Positions 35,138 to 41,626 of a stretch of 64,000 bases of DNA are shown here, in pieces. A model generated the notes under the pieces. It worked only from the letters and a program-made list of their open reading frames with translations. It had not been told where the DNA came from and did not search any database. The stretch lies in NCBI RefSeq assembly GCF_013315695.1, contig NZ_CP054354.1. The stretch is one strand, 5' to 3'. Both the position numbers and the translations under genes were made by a program. The DNA is from Escherichia coli. GTDB lineage: Bacteria; Pseudomonadota; Gammaproteobacteria; Enterobacterales; Enterobacteriaceae. The number at the start of each line of letters is the position of its first letter. The first letter of the stretch is position 1.

Positions 35138-35281
35138 GAGGATTCCTCCATCGATAAATAGATAAATTTCGGGATGAGGCTGAGTGGAATTAATGCGAAC
35201 AATCGCCGGTAATGACCGGGCAGGGCTGAATTCAGCAGGGCATTTTCACAGGAACAACAGAAGGTGGTGAGAGACAGGCAC

Positions 35282-35312
35282 AAAAAAGCCGACTGGTGAG
35301 GCCGGCTTTTTT
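35282..35312. terminator. Hairpin flanked by A-run and T-run (bidirectional terminator geometry) at the start of type I module 1
   Basis: aaaaaagccgactggtgaggccggctttttt; on the minus strand the hairpin is followed by a T-run. Confidence 0.55.
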
Positions 35313-35375
35313 GCGATCCCAGGGAGAGTGGGTGGCTCTGGCCCGGAGGAAGTCTCTTTTCAACTAACGTTACCA
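35313..35375 (-). ncRNA. Predicted antisense sRNA for module 1 (cis-encoded upstream, minus strand)
   Basis: 35335-35367 repeats 35570-35601 (in the toxin leader) at ~31/33; a minus-strand transcript here would be complementary to the leader and end at the 35282-35312 terminator. Not demonstrated. Confidence 0.3.
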
Positions 35376-35673: not shown

Positions 35674-35769
35674 ATGATTAACCTGTTAATCATCGTTCTC
35701 AGGGCGGTTGTTGCTGTGGCTAACGCAGTGATAGCTCTCCTGGAACTGATCCGGGAACTGGTTGACTGA
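35674..35769 (+). CDS. DinQ/TisB-like type I toxin, copy 1 (31 aa, single transmembrane helix)
   Basis: MINLLIIVLRAVVAVANAVIALLELIRELVD; GGAG RBS 6 nt upstream next to a CCTCC stretch; strong terminator 35791-35816; below the ORF-track size cutoff. Confidence 0.6.
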   Translation: MINLLIIVLRAVVAVANAVIALLELIRELVD

Positions 35770-35819: not shown

Positions 35820-36010
35820 AATAATCTACGGACAGATTACTTTCTGTACTTCCAGAGCCTGTTTCTGTGAGTCAAACATGAGCTGGTTTTTACCGACTAC
35901 ACCCAAGTAAATATATTCGATATCTCCCATTTGCCGTATTTTCGTAAAATTCAACAGGAAATATTCAACGGGAGTGAGAGAACTGCTGTCCGGGGAGGAG
36001 GTACAGACGC

Positions 36011-36044
36011 AAAAAAACCGACTGGTGAGGCCGGTTTTTTTGCG
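36011..36044. terminator. Hairpin with flanking A/T runs at the start of type I module 2
   Basis: aaaaaaaccgactggtgaggccggttttttt, paralogue of 35282-35312. Confidence 0.55.
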
Positions 36045-36105
36045 ATTCCGGATCGAAGTTGGTAGCCCTGACCGGAAGATAACTGCCTATAACTGACTAT
36101 GAAAT
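36045..36105 (-). ncRNA. Predicted antisense sRNA for module 2
   Basis: 36071-36101 repeats 36254-36292 (toxin 2 leader) at ~26/30; repeat sequence differs from module 1. Confidence 0.3.
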
Positions 36106-36357: not shown

Positions 36358-36453
36358 ATGATTAACCTGTTAATCATCGTTCTCAGGGCGGTTGTTGCTG
36401 TGGCTAACGCAGTGATAGCAATCCTGGAACTGATCCGGGAACTGGTTGACTGA
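36358..36453 (+). CDS. DinQ/TisB-like type I toxin, copy 2 (31 aa)
   Basis: MINLLIIVLRAVVAVANAVIAILELIRELVD, one substitution from copy 1; same RBS context and terminator. Confidence 0.6.
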   Translation: MINLLIIVLRAVVAVANAVIAILELIRELVD

Positions 36454-37412: not shown

Positions 37413-38093
37413 ATGAATTCCAGTACGCTGATATCCGTGATGATACGGCAACAGATATCCGGTGACGGTATGCAGGAACATATTGATTATCAGATTGAGA
37501 AATATCAGTTCAGGGCCAGGAATGAGTCACCGCGACTGATGCGCCAGTGGGAAGATGTCATGCGTGAATGCCGTGATACCGGAGCAGGAGCCAGGGAGCG
37601 GCTGCGGATTGCCTTACTTAATGTTGATTATGTGACCAGTTTTGAACTGCCGTTTCGTCTGCTGTTAACCCGGACACCGCAGATGATTGACAGCGTGCGG
37701 CGGGAATGGCAGCTCAGCCAGAAAAAAGTTGTATTCAATGAGCGGCAGCGGGGATGTGTATACAGTCTGCAGAATGACTTATCCGGCGTGCCGGATAGCT
37801 TCAGTTACAGTCTTGCGACGCGAATACGGCGGGCGGACAGCTATGGCATGACGACGCGTTGTTTCACTGATATAGCCGGGCAGGTTAAAGCCCCGACAGC
37901 ACGGCTGAAACTGGCGCTGGAAAGCGGGTTAATTGTCACCGCGCTGGATGGTCTGTTCTGGCTTGGTATTCAACGTATTGCCGCAGATGTGCAGCGGCTG
38001 CGTCAGTCCGGAATGACAATCATCACCCGGGATGTTGAGGTCTCAGACTCGCTGACCGGAACCACACGGGTTGTTTCCGGGTACAGCCTTTGA
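37413..38093 (+). CDS. Hypothetical protein (226 aa)
   Basis: Long ORF, no clear RBS at any candidate start; 3' end overlaps the convergent 38043-38294 ORF by 51 nt. Confidence 0.45.
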   Translation: MNSSTLISVMIRQQISGDGMQEHIDYQIEKYQFRARNESPRLMRQWEDVMRECRDTGAGARERLRIALLNVDYVTSFELPFRLLLTRTPQMIDSVRREWQLSQKKVVFNERQRGCVYSLQNDLSGVPDSFSYSLATRIRRADSYGMTTRCFTDIAGQVKAPTARLKLALESGLIVTALDGLFWLGIQRIAADVQRLRQSGMTIITRDVEVSDSLTGTTRVVSGYSL

Positions 38094-38294
38094 TTTATGC
38101 AACAAAGTATCGCAGCGTCGAATATGAGCTATGGCCAGATTTTTGTTAATCGTGGTTGTTGCAACATGTAAGGCGAATGACCACACTATTCTGGCACGCT
38201 CGTAATCATGCTGAAATTCTGCTTCCTGTCCTGCCGTGATGAGTTCCGACCAGGACATACGGCGAAGTGTATGTCTGTCAGTAATATCCGTCAT
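38043..38294 (-). CDS. Small putative regulatory protein (83 aa), possibly PerC-like
   Basis: GGAGGAGG upstream of ATG; YERARIVW...AIAHIRRC loosely recalls PerC-type motifs; weak assignment. Confidence 0.4.
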   Translation of the reverse strand: MTDITDRHTLRRMSWSELITAGQEAEFQHDYERARIVWSFALHVATTTINKNLAIAHIRRCDTLLHKSKAVPGNNPCGSGQRV

Positions 38295-38506
38295 GAGCTC
38301 TCAGCCTCCTCCTTCGTATTTCCGTCAGAAACACAAACGCCCCGCAGAGAAAATTCGCCAACATTCTCCTTTTTAATGGCGCGCAATGCATCGCGGCAGG
38401 CCCGTTCGGTATGAAAGGCCTGGCTGTGCACCGCCAGTGTGGGCTGACGGGCATCACCGGAAGAGACATTAAAGGGCGATGAAAGCCAGAAAATCAGTAG
38501 CCACAT
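38291..38506 (-). CDS. Hypothetical small protein (71 aa) with hydrophobic N-terminus
   Basis: GAGGTG RBS 6 nt before ATG; N-terminal MWLLIFWLSSPF. Confidence 0.5.
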   Translation of the reverse strand: MWLLIFWLSSPFNVSSGDARQPTLAVHSQAFHTERACRDALRAIKKENVGEFSLRGVCVSDGNTKEEAESS

Positions 38507-38509
38507 GCG

Positions 38510-38878
38510 TCACACCTCGTCCTTTTTATGCGGGTATCTGGACAGAATATTGAGCGCCTGTAATGGCGCTTCATGCATTTCACGGATACAACGGGCATCG
38601 GTGATATTTTCCCGGTAATGTGTGGTTTCCAGCATCATATGATGCATATGGAGCATCCGGGCCAGGGCTGCGCGGAGTTCTTCAATATGTTGTTCATGGG
38701 AATGCTGGCGGGGCTGTATCCGGCAGAGAGGGATAACCTCCACATCATCCGGGTGCGCGCGAAGCCACGCGTCAGTGACTGCAATGTCGTCAGTGTAAAA
38801 CCATGTGCCGGATGTCCCGTTGGCCAGAAAACGCATTTTCCAGGCTTCTGGGGTGGCGGTTGTGTTGTTATCTTTCAT
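38510..38878 (-). CDS. Hypothetical His-rich protein (122 aa)
   Basis: ATG at 38878 after GGTGG; ORF track start 38893 is upstream alternative. Confidence 0.5.
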   Translation of the reverse strand: MKDNNTTATPEAWKMRFLANGTSGTWFYTDDIAVTDAWLRAHPDDVEVIPLCRIQPRQHSHEQHIEELRAALARMLHMHHMMLETTHYRENITDARCIREMHEAPLQALNILSRYPHKKDEV

Positions 38879-39177
38879 GGTGCCACCACTCATTCAACAG
38901 GCTTAATGCTGTCCAGGCGCAGTCTGCTCAGACTGTCGTGGCTGCCACAGCGGCGTCCAGTGCTTTTGCTGTAGCACTCCTGCCCCCTGATACACCATGC
39001 CGTTGGCGTTTCGTAGAGGCTGACACGTCGGGTTTTATCTTTAATGATGAGAAGCCCGGTGTGAGTTTTTGTCTTTTTCATCGGTGGGGTACAAACGCAG
39101 AAATTTTGTTGTCATTACATCATCAGTTTTAGCCTGCAGAGACGCTGAAAAATCAGCGTTTTCAGACCCTGTTCAGG

Positions 39178-39420
39178 TTAGTGAATATTCTTGCCTGGCC
39201 TTTCGGCAATATCAATCCCCTGAAGTTGCATGGATATCCCATGCCCATTGAGCATCTGGCTGTCCATGGAATGGATACCGCATGTCATCATCAGGTTGTA
39301 ACAAAGCGTACTCAGCATGGCGAGTGCCTCTTCTGAGGATTTACAATGTGTGTTCATAAGGGCCAGAAACTGCTCAACAACATCCGGGTTAATGCTGGTA
39401 CTGTGTATTTCATCCTTCAT
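39178..39420 (-). CDS. Hypothetical small protein (80 aa)
   Basis: AAGGA RBS 6 nt before ATG at 39420; ORF track extends to 39498 without RBS. Confidence 0.4.
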   Translation of the reverse strand: MKDEIHSTSINPDVVEQFLALMNTHCKSSEEALAMLSTLCYNLMMTCGIHSMDSQMLNGHGISMQLQGIDIAERPGKNIH

Positions 39421-39749
39421 GATGTGTCCTTGTTTTTTATTATTTTGCATTTCAGAAAATAACACGATGCCTGCAGCCCGGAAAACAGATGTGTGCACAC
39501 GTAGTCACTTTCCGGCTTTATTTCTGTCCCTGACACAAAATACGTGGTGGCATGAAAAGGATTGTGGCGGACTGGAAAACGATTAGAATAGCGGCGGGCG
39601 CTTGAGGCTGTATGCCGAAAGCGTTTTGTGGACGGCATGTAGCAGAAAGCCCCAGGCGATTTTTTTATCAATCAACCCAGGGCCCACTGTAATGCCTCAA
39701 CAACATTATAGTAGCCCGATGACGGCCGAAAGGCAATGGAGGGGCTGCG

Positions 39750-39902
39750 ATGCCACAACGAACGTTTTTAATGATGTTAATCGTCGTCTGTGTGACGATA
39801 CTGTGTTTTGTCTGGATGGTGAGGGATTCGCTTTGCGGATTTCGTATCGAGCAGGGAAATACGGTGCTTGTGGCAACGTTAGCCTACGAAGTTAAACGTT
39901 AA
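39750..39902 (+). CDS. Hok/Gef-family type I toxin (PndA-like, 50 aa) with overlapping mok-like frame
   Basis: MPQRTFLMMLIVVCVTILCFVWMVRDSLCGFRIEQGNTVLVATLAYEVKR fits the Hok pattern (...R.SLC....G...V.A.LAYE.K); overlapping ORF 39692-39895 ends 7 nt before the hok stop, as mok does; below the ORF-track cutoff. Confidence 0.7.
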   Translation: MPQRTFLMMLIVVCVTILCFVWMVRDSLCGFRIEQGNTVLVATLAYEVKR

Positions 39903-40039: not shown

Positions 40040-41626
40040 TCAATTATGACAGTCGCTCTCATTTAGTTGTCTCTGGTTAGATGTATTATTAGATATTTTC
40101 GGGGTAATTCGATAAAAGTTATCCACTTCAGCACCAGACTGAATGATATATGCAATAAGATCTAAACGATGAATCTCGTATCGTGTACGTAACTCCATCA
40201 TTTCACGCCATGCTAAAATCCTTGATGTTTTCAGTTCAGCCTCTATAAGTTTCCATGTGTTTGTTGAGATGGCATGTTCTTCCAGCTGACGTAACGAGAA
40301 CCTATCACTAATGACCAACCATCCCCATCCTCGAGTATGTGCCCATTTGCGACCTGCATTACTTTTTATTCTCGTGAGACTCAAGGTCATTCGGTCTGTT
40401 GGCTTCACTTCCATAAGTAGGCACCGACCATCAACTGTCGCAATGAGTAAATCTGGATAGTATTTTTTTGATTTGTTTTTAAAACAATATGGAATAGAAA
40501 ATGGTTGTTCTTGATAGAAAAGAACCTGATCGCAACATTCTAATAGATTCATTATTTTAAACTCAAGCCCTGATTCGTACTGGACTGTACGACCTAATTT
40601 TTGAGAGTAAAAGAATCCAGATATGTCAGTATCATTAACCGCTCTCTGTGAACATAGCTGTTCTACGGGGGGAGGAGGTGCGATATATTTTGGCCAATGT
40701 GTATTGTCTAGCCATTTACTGAATATGAACTCAACTCTTTCTTTCTTGATTCGGGCTCTTTCCTGAGCGCGAGCGTGTGCTAATTCTGCTCTTCGTTCAC
40801 GTAACCTCTGCTTTTGTAATTGTGATATTAATGAGAGCGAACTTTTTATTTCATCTCGTCTTGCTTTAGGAATGCCTGCGGTAAAAATAATGAATTTGGC
40901 GGCTAAGTCAGAGGATGTAACGAAATCCCGATGAACAATACGATAAATCCATACTGCTATATCATATGGTGAATTACCTATTGAGTTAATAAGGGCTTTA
41001 AGGCAAGCTCCAGGTGTCCCTTCATAGCGAGATTTAGCAGCTAGTAAGCCAAGGGCTCGTTCCTGAAGTTGTCTTACCCTTTCACGGGAAATTCCTAATT
41101 TGACGGCAATATCTGCCAGAGAATGAGGTGAATCATCTGTGCCGAGTCGCATTAGAAGAATATATTGATGTCGTTTATTAGATAAACTTTCGATAGCAGA
41201 ATGAATTAGCATAATGACATCATGTTCATCGGCTATATAATCTTTAAAATCTGTATTGGGTTGGCAGAGGGGGAGTGGGGTATTTTGTTTAAAACTATTC
41301 TTTTGTATTTCAACTTTATCATGAGCAATTGTTTTTGCAGTGCTCAATGATATTAAATTATTGATGATACTATTGTGTTCTTGGCGAGGAATCTTGTTGA
41401 AGTAATTGCTGAGATCATTCACCGTGTTTATATCGTTGAACTCAAGAAACTCAGAAGGAAGCAGGCGTTTGATTGCTCCACGTATTCCCCCGGACGATCG
41501 TTGATGTGTTTGAGTAAGTTTTTTTAGCGAGACGCCCTCCGCTATGGATACGAGAAGACGCTGTAACTCTTCAGTATTCCATGGAGTACCATGTCGTGCT
41601 GGAAAATTGCTGCGGGATTCAGACAT
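40040..41626 (-). CDS. AT-rich multi-domain protein: Myb/SANT-like N-terminus, sigma-70 region-4-type HTH, C-terminal TnsA-like PD-(D/E)xK endonuclease (528 aa)
   Basis: GTPWNTEELQRLL (SANT-like W..EEL), SLADIAVKLGISRERVRQLQERALGLL (sigma r4/LuxR-type HTH), QYESGLEF...YYPDLLIATVDGRCLLMEVKP (E...PD...EVK nuclease core). Domain calls by eye. Confidence 0.65.
   Translation of the reverse strand: MSESRSNFPARHGTPWNTEELQRLLVSIAEGVSLKKLTQTHQRSSGGIRGAIKRLLPSEFLEFNDINTVNDLSNYFNKIPRQEHNSIINNLISLSTAKTIAHDKVEIQKNSFKQNTPLPLCQPNTDFKDYIADEHDVIMLIHSAIESLSNKRHQYILLMRLGTDDSPHSLADIAVKLGISRERVRQLQERALGLLAAKSRYEGTPGACLKALINSIGNSPYDIAVWIYRIVHRDFVTSSDLAAKFIIFTAGIPKARRDEIKSSLSLISQLQKQRLRERRAELAHARAQERARIKKERVEFIFSKWLDNTHWPKYIAPPPPVEQLCSQRAVNDTDISGFFYSQKLGRTVQYESGLEFKIMNLLECCDQVLFYQEQPFSIPYCFKNKSKKYYPDLLIATVDGRCLLMEVKPTDRMTLSLTRIKSNAGRKWAHTRGWGWLVISDRFSLRQLEEHAISTNTWKLIEAELKTSRILAWREMMELRTRYEIHRLDLIAYIIQSGAEVDNFYRITPKISNNTSNQRQLNESDCHN

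Follow-up and report, generated by a model that had tools for sequence, protein, structure and literature searches.

The subject of this report is a cluster of five small genes on the minus strand of a 64,000-nucleotide stretch of Escherichia coli DNA (contig NZ_CP054354.1), called "the window" in what follows. The window is a conjugative plasmid of the I complex (IncB/O/K type). Over 2.55 kb around the cluster it matches E. coli plasmid pMB9108_2 (NZ_CP103535.1) with 100% identity; that plasmid types as an IncI1/B/O replicon with a MOBP relaxase and MPF_I. In pMB9108_2, the gene order runs from trbC-trbB-trbA through two dqlB type I toxins, a 58-amino acid (aa) open reading frame (ORF), a thermonuclease gene and a winged helix-turn-helix (HTH) gene on the plus strand, to the small-gene cluster on the minus strand, and then to hok/sok (plus strand), a 528-aa protein with TnsA-N and sigma-70-region-4 domains, excA, and traY onward. 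The cluster is found, then, between two blocks of transfer genes, traY-excA and trbABC.

An initial annotation, made from the letters of the sequence, reported here a cluster of four ORFs, of 80, 122, 71 and 83 aa. All four are present in the ORF list where they had been placed, and the 4-nt ATGA shared by the last two (38291-38294) is indeed there. The cluster has five genes, however. The fifth, orf63, was overlooked in what had been taken for a gap, and is annotated in the identical plasmid by the Prokaryotic Genome Annotation Pipeline (PGAP).

For the most part, this is an ordinary accessory patch. The one informative result that it delivers is a divergent ANR-like regulator, mis-annotated or left without annotation, in a four-gene cassette that is widely spread.

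The features of the cluster, in window coordinates, are these:

39456-39485, minus strand: candidate sigma-70 promoter, TTTTCC, 18-nt spacer, TG-n-TATTTT (extended -10); hexamer scan, 7/12 match
39178-39420, minus strand: orf80, 80 aa, PGAP coding sequence WP_001363144.1; first gene of the cluster
39082-39177, minus strand: orf80-orf63 spacer, 96 nt, with a 7-bp hairpin at 39142-39159; upstream edge of the four-gene cassette
38890-39081, minus strand: orf63, 63 aa, PGAP coding sequence WP_000751583.1 in the identical plasmid
38510-38878, minus strand: orf122, 122 aa, PGAP coding sequence WP_001302696.1
38291-38506, minus strand: orf71, 71 aa, PGAP coding sequence WP_000266543.1
38043-38294, minus strand: orf83, 83 aa, conserved core at residues ~10-68 (~38091-38267)
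38092-39179, minus strand: four-gene cassette (orf63-orf122-orf71-orf83 core), delimited by blastn against plasmid pECOED (breakpoints 38091/38092 and 39179/39180)
37968-39579 (~1.6 kb), no strand assigned: block common to islands of extraintestinal pathogenic E. coli (ExPEC) and an IncF plasmid, 93-95% identity by blastn

Five genes under purifying selection

All five ORFs are genuine genes under purifying selection. Compared with diverged copies in other plasmids and in chromosomes, the ratio of nonsynonymous to synonymous substitution rates (dN/dS) is 0.17 for orf80 (measured against its IncK2/Z allele), 0.12 for orf63, 0.12 for orf122 and 0.06 for orf71. The ratio of orf83 is 0.29, and here dS is saturated in the comparison with the copy from Shiga toxin-producing E. 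coli (STEC). Ratios that lie between 0.06 and 0.3 for all five imply purifying selection, and this, in turn, implies real genes. PGAP nevertheless skips orf83 on plasmids, and sometimes orf63 as well, while it annotates a 90-aa version of orf83 in chromosomal islands.

The genes are packed as tightly as had been thought. Within the four-gene unit, intergenic gaps are 0-27 nt, in the window and STEC versions alike. The stop of orf63 overlaps an ATG at 38893, and orf71 starts 3 nt past the stop of orf122. The ATG at 38893 offers an alternative, upstream start for orf122 that would give 127 aa; it is not conserved, and the start used in the STEC copy corresponds to 38878. A ribosome-binding site had been claimed for each of the ORFs. 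This holds for orf80 (AAGGA), orf71 (GAGG) and orf83 (AGGAGG). In orf63 and orf122 the Shine-Dalgarno sequence is weak or absent, and these two lie instead 0-3 nt from their upstream neighbour genes.

At least orf71 is transcribed. The identical protein is encoded by the IncK plasmid pCT, where RNA sequencing under azidothymidine (AZT) gives it a log2 fold change (log2FC) of +0.94 (adjusted P 2e-8; PMC13079834 supplement). The predicted promoter of the cluster would be the element at 39456-39485. A stricter scan finds nothing there, and picks out TTGATA-17-AAGAAT at 39215-39187, inside the 3' end of orf80. The hairpin in the orf80-orf63 spacer was considered as a terminator or structured RNA and rejected; its fold z is -1.27, and because it lacks a U-tract it is not a typical terminator. 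An Rfam scan gave no match inside the cluster.

Two units, one of them movable

The cluster consists of two units, a backbone gene, orf80, and a separable cassette of the other four. This emerges from comparison with pECOED (IncK2/Z), where homology to the window extends up to 38091 and resumes at 39180. Here, the slot holds a DUF2569 gene and a phosphoethanolamine transferase gene instead of the cassette. Thus, orf80 is backbone that is kept with hok, while orf63-orf122-orf71-orf83 is a cassette that can be replaced. A search for repeats flanking the cassette gave just short chance matches. Further, orf80 has two alleles, ~71% identical, and the second allele is joined to the other four genes in near-identical form, which implies a recombination joint in the orf80-orf63 spacer. 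In this slot, a phosphoethanolamine transferase, with DUF2569, replaces or accompanies the cassette in some IncK2/Z plasmids (pECOED, locus L012, 3626-6000; locus L005, 1176-2720); PLSDB does not mark it as an mcr allele.

STEC plasmids such as pO104_H21 carry the cassette without orf80, near espP, in the order 63-122-71-(103-aa orf83 homologue), with 72% DNA identity to the window. An order that is conserved at saturated synonymous divergence speaks for functional linkage, most simply an operon, and from this conserved order the four genes are probably co-transcribed. Some STEC plasmids (for example NZ_CP023542.1 and NZ_CP027372.1) match parts of the 1.5-kb query in 3-5 separate places, and pO26/pO157-like plasmids keep just an orf63 homologue beside espP.

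The classic IncI1 plasmid ColIb-P9 has none of the five genes; there, trbA runs directly to hok. The IncK plasmid pCT has the same arrangement as the window. In PLSDB, a 1.5-kb block of the cluster is covered to at least 80% in 360 plasmids, traY at least 80% identical to that of the window is found in 469 (the IncB/O/K-type sub-clade), and at least 80% of traY is covered, at any identity, in 1806; these counts compare the sizes of the three sets, not their membership. By itself, orf83 has alignments that span 80% or more of its length in 364 plasmids. In the sub-clade plasmids, the cluster was intact wherever it was checked. The initial annotation had allowed that the genes might be absent or pseudogenised in most relatives; they are absent from IncI1 proper, and present in most plasmids of the IncB/O/K-type sub-clade.

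Beyond these plasmids, the block at 37968-39579 recurs in ExPEC chromosomal islands and in an IncF plasmid with MPF_F. It contains the 3' end of the HTH gene as a stub and stops just short of hok/sok. Since the island copies keep this stub, they derive from a plasmid-like arrangement. They adjoin iha (in ATCC 25922, for example, near pap and sat), as does the IncF copy, and their flanks contain many insertion sequence (IS) fragments and truncated genes. Of 5426 complete E. coli genomes, 976 (~18%) have the block covered to 80% or more. Matches to it fall at 1021 chromosomal and 986 plasmid places. A DNA search of phages with the whole block gave no match.

The cluster is movable accessory cargo of an I-complex plasmid, and is not conjugation machinery. 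This follows from its absence from ColIb-P9, from the different cargo in pECOED and from the copies in chromosomes and in an IncF plasmid. The view that none of the genes is a recognisable transfer gene was borne out, as the transfer families of Pfam and NCBIfam show no Tra, Trb or Pil similarity for any of the five proteins. To say that they sit "inside the transfer region" is correct as to position and misleading as to meaning, because the site is a variable one for cargo, absent from classic IncI1.

A divergent ANR-type protein

Scans of all five proteins against Pfam, NCBIfam, PHROG and PADLOC left two leads only, ANR and PHROG. Pfam and PADLOC gave zero matches, and the genes are as unannotated in function as had been said.

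The first lead concerns orf83. A profile made from the conserved core of six members of its family was searched against 1.84 billion representative proteins. Beyond close relatives, it retrieved eight small proteins of 72-95 aa (E 1e-20 to 1e-4). All eight match NF033650, the NCBIfam model of the ANR family, and two exceed its cut-off of 32 bits, P0179 with 41.1 bits (profile E 1e-19) and P0186 with 34.9 bits (profile E 7.5e-9). A paralogue from STEC, P0177, scores 28.5 bits. The joint alignment of the core is gapless, with the motif W15..L18...A22..A25-E26.......A34...W38..A41........N50...A54.A56....C61, in which A34, W38, A41, N50, A54 and C61 are invariant. When the orf83 family was compared by hhalign with Aar, the ANR protein of plasmid pAA of enteroaggregative E. 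coli (EAEC) 042, the probability was 78% (E 1.8e-5) over 51 gapless columns.

Of the positions that matter for known ANR proteins, some are kept in orf83 and some are changed. Aar is inactivated by mutation of A14, E18, A26 and W45 (PMC4983702), sites that map to A/G22, E26, A34 and L53 of orf83. The ANR signature comprises A10, E14, A22, W26, A29, W43 and R47 plus a conserved Cys (PMC4983702). Of this signature, orf83 has the A10 site (the consensus of its family is Ala there, while the window copy has G22), E26, A34, W38, A41 and C61, this last, invariant residue being the one to which the highly conserved ANR Cys (PMC4038620) maps; the W43 and R47 sites are altered.

A model of orf83 computed by AlphaFold2 (AF2) with the joint alignment has a predicted local distance difference test (pLDDT) score of 82.8, exceeding 90 over residues 11-65. 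It has helices at 15-27, 31-44 and 48-70 and a disordered tail. Among viral predicted structures, it superposes on a protein of Aeromonas phage 2_D05 that bears the annotation "ANR family transcriptional regulator," with a root-mean-square deviation of 0.9 A over 58 columns and a TM-score of 0.91 normalised to the target. Generic TPR, Sel1 and MIT folds also match the model. In size, ANR proteins are defined as <10 kDa and 39-80 aa (PMC4038620, PMC4983702); orf83 has 9.4 kDa and 83 aa, with a conserved core of ~65 aa. Its last 15 residues vary between copies and, on the plasmid, are read-through antisense to the 3' end of the convergent HTH gene.

The relationship is visible to profile methods only. 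A tblastn search of plasmids with orf83 did not reach annotated ANR genes directly. Pfam has no match for orf83, and the PerC model PF06069 has none at E <= 1 for orf83, nine small distant relatives or one repeat protein. One of the ORFs had been described as loosely PerC-like. This was close, in that an ANR relationship was then found by profile, by profile-profile comparison and by fold, although PF06069 itself does not match. PerC-family and ANR-family matches can co-occur for one protein (PMC11773190). The PerC/Pch proteins are likewise small helical regulators carried on plasmids, prophages and phage-inducible chromosomal islands of pathogenic E. coli, and differ from orf83 in the family to which they belong by sequence.

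We read orf83 as a true but divergent member of the ANR superfamily, a remote homologue that, from its profile matches and predicted structure, shares the ANR fold. The closest systems would then be Aar of EAEC 042, Cnr of enterotoxigenic E. coli (ETEC) and Rnr of Citrobacter rodentium. These have in common with orf83 a core of ~65 aa in three helices, the motif W..L...A..AE.......A...W..A...(helix 3)...C, the lack of a DNA-binding domain, and residence on plasmids, islands and phages of enteric pathogens. The orf83 proteins are unlike them in their length of 83-103 aa with a variable tail, and in standing last in a four-gene cassette rather than alone. A further likeness is to small H-NS antagonists (H-NST of islands in enteropathogenic and uropathogenic E. 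coli, gp5.5 of phage T7), which are also small, borne by mobile elements and without a DNA-binding domain, and which bind the oligomerisation domain of H-NS. This is an analogy of mechanism only, not of sequence; the authors of the ANR work draw the same comparison for their own proteins (PMC5570504).

Distant ANR-like relatives of orf83 also occur in other mobile contexts (loci L014, 5001-5234; L022, 4001-4258; L025, 268-516). One lies inside a transfer region of the F or integrative and conjugative element (ICE) type, between traC and traU-side genes. Another is beside a YdgH-TetR-DUF417 trio, which is found next to the cassette in the ExPEC island as well. A third is 1.1 kb from a PerC-family gene. 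In NCBI and UniRef, the orf83 family carries the legacy name "neurotensin receptor R8," for which no functional basis was found and which a genome paper repeats uncritically (PMC7371111).

The other four proteins

The second lead concerns orf63 and orf71. The basic protein orf63 (pI 9.9) matches phrog_1226 (7.1e-17, residues 1-63 of the 67-position profile) and three further PHROGs, and by tblastn has matches in 101 phage records. Its homologues are small early-region ORFs of lambdoid and Stx phages; in Stx phage PA2 the homologue follows NinC, with further small ORFs on its other side, and in phage Flotzy it lies between a DksA-like gene and an exonuclease gene. A zinc site made of three Cys and one His was considered for orf63, and rejected because the Cys residues are not conserved in the phage homologues. 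The protein orf71 matches phrog_3766 (2.5e-11, residues 1-65 of the 66-position profile); in Klebsiella lambdoid phages its homologue lies between EaD and Eaa, in the nin region. All of the matched PHROG families are without assigned function. To judge from these family matches, both genes come from among the small, non-essential genes that lambdoid phages carry in their early regions (the nin, ea and exo-xis "morons"; PHROGs 1226, 7520, 5148, 4183 and 3766). In the phages inspected, such genes occur singly; on the plasmid and in the islands, by contrast, orf63 and orf71 are linked to each other and to the ANR-like gene.

The N-terminus of orf71 (MWLLIFWLSSPFNVSSG) had been called secretion-like. 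It does have a short hydrophobic start, with a run of ~8 residues (WLLIFWL) that is conserved, together with two Cys, in the phage homologue. The resemblance is weak, however, as there is no basic residue to form an n-region and the 19-residue Kyte-Doolittle maximum is 0.81. A signal-peptide call is unconvincing for a hydrophobic start so short and uncharged.

Less can be said of the remaining two. The protein orf122 has homologues in E. coli only, and no family, PDB or phage match, including by tblastn against phages. It is predicted to begin with a beta-beta-alpha-beta part and to continue with two long helices; its AF2 model, from a 7-sequence alignment, has low confidence (pLDDT 48). It contains 10 His among its 122 residues and an invariant Met/His-rich helix, MLHMHH, at residues 75-80; C52, C97 and H102 are conserved across both lineages. 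These residues may form a putative metal-binding site. A weak match to M-CSF (E 0.05) was rejected as chance. The acidic orf80 (pI 5.3) has 89 homologues, all of them unnamed, without a Pfam match, and restricted to E. coli and other Enterobacteriaceae. For all five proteins, sequence searches of the PDB with single sequences or profiles found nothing credible, and phmmer, run against every ORF in the phage and distant loci, turned up no further linked homologues.

A proposed mechanism and its rivals

In the AraC-family activators AggR, Rns and ToxT, known ANR proteins bind the central dimerisation region; in proteins of the H-NS family they bind the oligomerisation domain (PMC4983702, PMC5570504). 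By analogy, we infer for orf83 a similar binding of partners and a similar regulatory effect. Here, the cluster is taken as accessory cargo, made of the backbone gene orf80 and a mobile four-gene cassette that ends in a divergent ANR-type protein acting on host regulators. The cassette moves as a unit among plasmids of the IncB/O/K type, ExPEC pathogenicity islands and the virulence plasmids of STEC. Its orf83 product, a TPR-like protein of ~65 residues in three helices with no DNA-binding domain, would bind the oligomerisation region of host regulators by protein-protein contact, as do Aar, Cnr and Rnr. Candidate targets would be activators of the AraC/XylS family, silencers of the H-NS family, or both. 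Such binding would retune the expression of host or island genes whenever the element is present. The small phage-type proteins might be independent passengers or partners of orf83, and any role for the four proteins other than orf83 is conjectural. We put the probability of this reading at roughly 0.55.

Several observations weigh against it. The window's own orf83 scores 20.6 bits (E 3e-4) with NF033650, below the 32-bit cut-off. Two signature positions are altered: W43 is L53 here (relatives have L, Y or F), and R47 is H57 (relatives have K or R); the first of these is the helix-3 Trp, W45 of Aar, whose mutation abolishes Aar activity. Identity to Aar is 18%, and BLASTP is not significant. 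The Foldseek E-value of the superposition, 0.24, is also not significant, because three-helix TPR-like folds are common; in the PDB, Foldseek gives generic TPR, MIT and 14-3-3 helical matches alone, at E > 0.3. Classical ANR genes lie close to their AraC partner (PMC4038620). The annotated parts of pMB9108_2 that were read (record 9565-85000) contain no AraC/XylS gene, and none lies within 9 kb of the cassette in two chromosomal islands. In Citrobacter rodentium, however, the ANR gene is phage-borne and not adjacent to its partner (PMC4038620), from which it follows that proximity to AraC is typical of ANR genes and not universal. The GC content of the cassette, 50-55%, is like that of E. coli, which implies no obvious need for the cassette to relieve its own silencing. 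Scans of the cluster found no promoter or terminator of consensus quality. Last, none of the searches gave a function to four of the five proteins.

A stronger version of the same idea would make the four genes a hitherto unrecognised multi-protein regulatory module of mobile elements, in which the ANR-type adaptor and three small partners, one with a conserved helix rich in Met, His and Cys, act together against H-NS-family silencing or AraC-family activators of the host. We hold it improbable. If it were true, plasmids and islands with iha, espP, sat or pap would have a shared switch over host and virulence genes, present in about one-sixth of E. coli genomes.

Those who emphasize the phage-type genes might prefer to see here early host take-over or anti-defence proteins that shield the incoming element, in the manner of leading-region anti-defence islands. 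The membership of orf63 and orf71 in PHROG families from the early-left or nin/ea regions of lambdoid phages, the small size of all five products (63-122 aa) and the spread of the cassette across mobile elements would suit this view. It is the most likely of the rivals, and still unlikely. The cluster is ~10 kb from oriT, on the trbABC-nikAB side, and in IncI1 transfer that side enters the recipient last and is not the leading region; the proteins match none of the defence-related models in PADLOC, and orf122 and orf80 have no phage relatives. The position between traY-excA and trbABC might also be explained if the genes served the I-complex transfer system as accessory factors for conjugation or establishment. 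Here one would cite pCT, where orf71 rises under AZT by the same amount as trbA and excA (log2FC ~+0.94), and the distant ANR-like gene between traC and traU of another transfer region. But ColIb-P9 is a fully transfer-proficient IncI1 plasmid without these genes, pECOED has unrelated cargo in the same slot, copies persist in chromosomal islands, which are non-conjugative contexts, and in an IncF plasmid with MPF_F, and nothing in the proteins resembles Tra, Trb or Pil families. A transfer role is, on this evidence, very unlikely.

The genes might also be doing nothing, as hitch-hiking leftovers from a prophage or island that has degraded; the ANR likeness would then be that of any generic TPR-like three-helix fold. 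The debris in the island flanks, the non-significant E-values of the structural matches to generic TPR, Sel1 and MIT folds, and the omission of orf83 and sometimes orf63 by PGAP are what such remnants might produce. They would not be expected to show strong purifying selection in all five genes where synonymous sites are saturated, to retain orf83 in 364 plasmids, or to be transcribed, as orf71 is in pCT; the sequence-profile links to ANR are, moreover, independent of fold. We consider this account quite improbable. Finally, orf80, or the whole cluster, could be a functional part of the adjacent hok/sok (pnd) locus for post-segregational killing, given that orf80 always stands beside hok in I-complex plasmids, even where the cassette is missing, and is transcribed divergently from it. 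Since hok/sok is a self-contained type I toxin-antitoxin system, with a complete Rfam sok/hok match at this locus, and since island copies have orf80 without hok while ColIb-P9 has hok without orf80, we give this proposal almost no weight.

Should orf83 behave like Aar, as the preferred reading proposes, then a class of regulators studied in diarrhoeagenic pathogens would extend to epidemic extended-spectrum beta-lactamase (ESBL) plasmids (IncK pCT) and to the iha/sat/pap islands of extraintestinal E. coli, and a plasmid would have a route to retune the transcription of its host. The analysis has more modest uses as well. It corrects the labels of a protein family that databases name, meaninglessly, "neurotensin receptor R8" or leave without annotation on plasmids. 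It means that these genes need no longer be counted as candidates for a transfer role. And it marks the gap from the HTH gene to orf80 as a cargo slot of IncB/O/K-type plasmids.

Neighbouring genes

Around the cluster are the following features:

40040-41626, minus strand: 528-aa protein, TnsA-like endonuclease N-terminal domain plus sigma-70 region 4
39596-39902, plus strand: hok/sok module, Rfam sok 124.7 bits
37413/37471-38093, plus strand: HTH gene, ECs1377 family (NF052300, 299.6 bits), with a C-terminal HTH_39 (Pfam) winged helix
36516-36692, minus strand: 58-aa ORF, phrog_8110 (2e-18), a small phage-family gene in the same cargo stretch
~35674-35769 and ~36358-36453, plus strand: two tandem copies of dqlB, DinQ-like type I toxin, from the pMB9108_2 annotation
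35280-35367 and 36009-36096, minus strand: two AgrB-like antisense RNAs, Rfam RF02891, 37.4 and 47.7 bits

The initial annotation had bounded the cluster by a hok-like module and a 226-aa "orphan." Both are there, and the second is not an orphan, since it is the winged-HTH gene of the ECs1377 family. PGAP starts this gene at 37471, for a product of 207 aa, and its last 51 nt overlap the tail of the convergent orf83. In ATCC 25922, a stub beside the remnant of the HTH gene, just outside the shared block, is labelled as a fragment of a "TOTE conflict system primase-domain" protein.

On the other side, the gene for the 528-aa protein is the "putative RNA polymerase sigma factor pCT_066" of the IncK plasmid pCT (PMC3377399). 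Its predicted mix of domains would fit a nuclease/HTH protein better than a sigma factor. It also has a weak PADLOC match to SspB (E 5.6e-4). The dqlB/AgrB-like pairs represent a second type of toxin-antitoxin system beside hok/sok in the same cargo region, and the 58-aa minus-strand ORF lies downstream of the thermonuclease gene.

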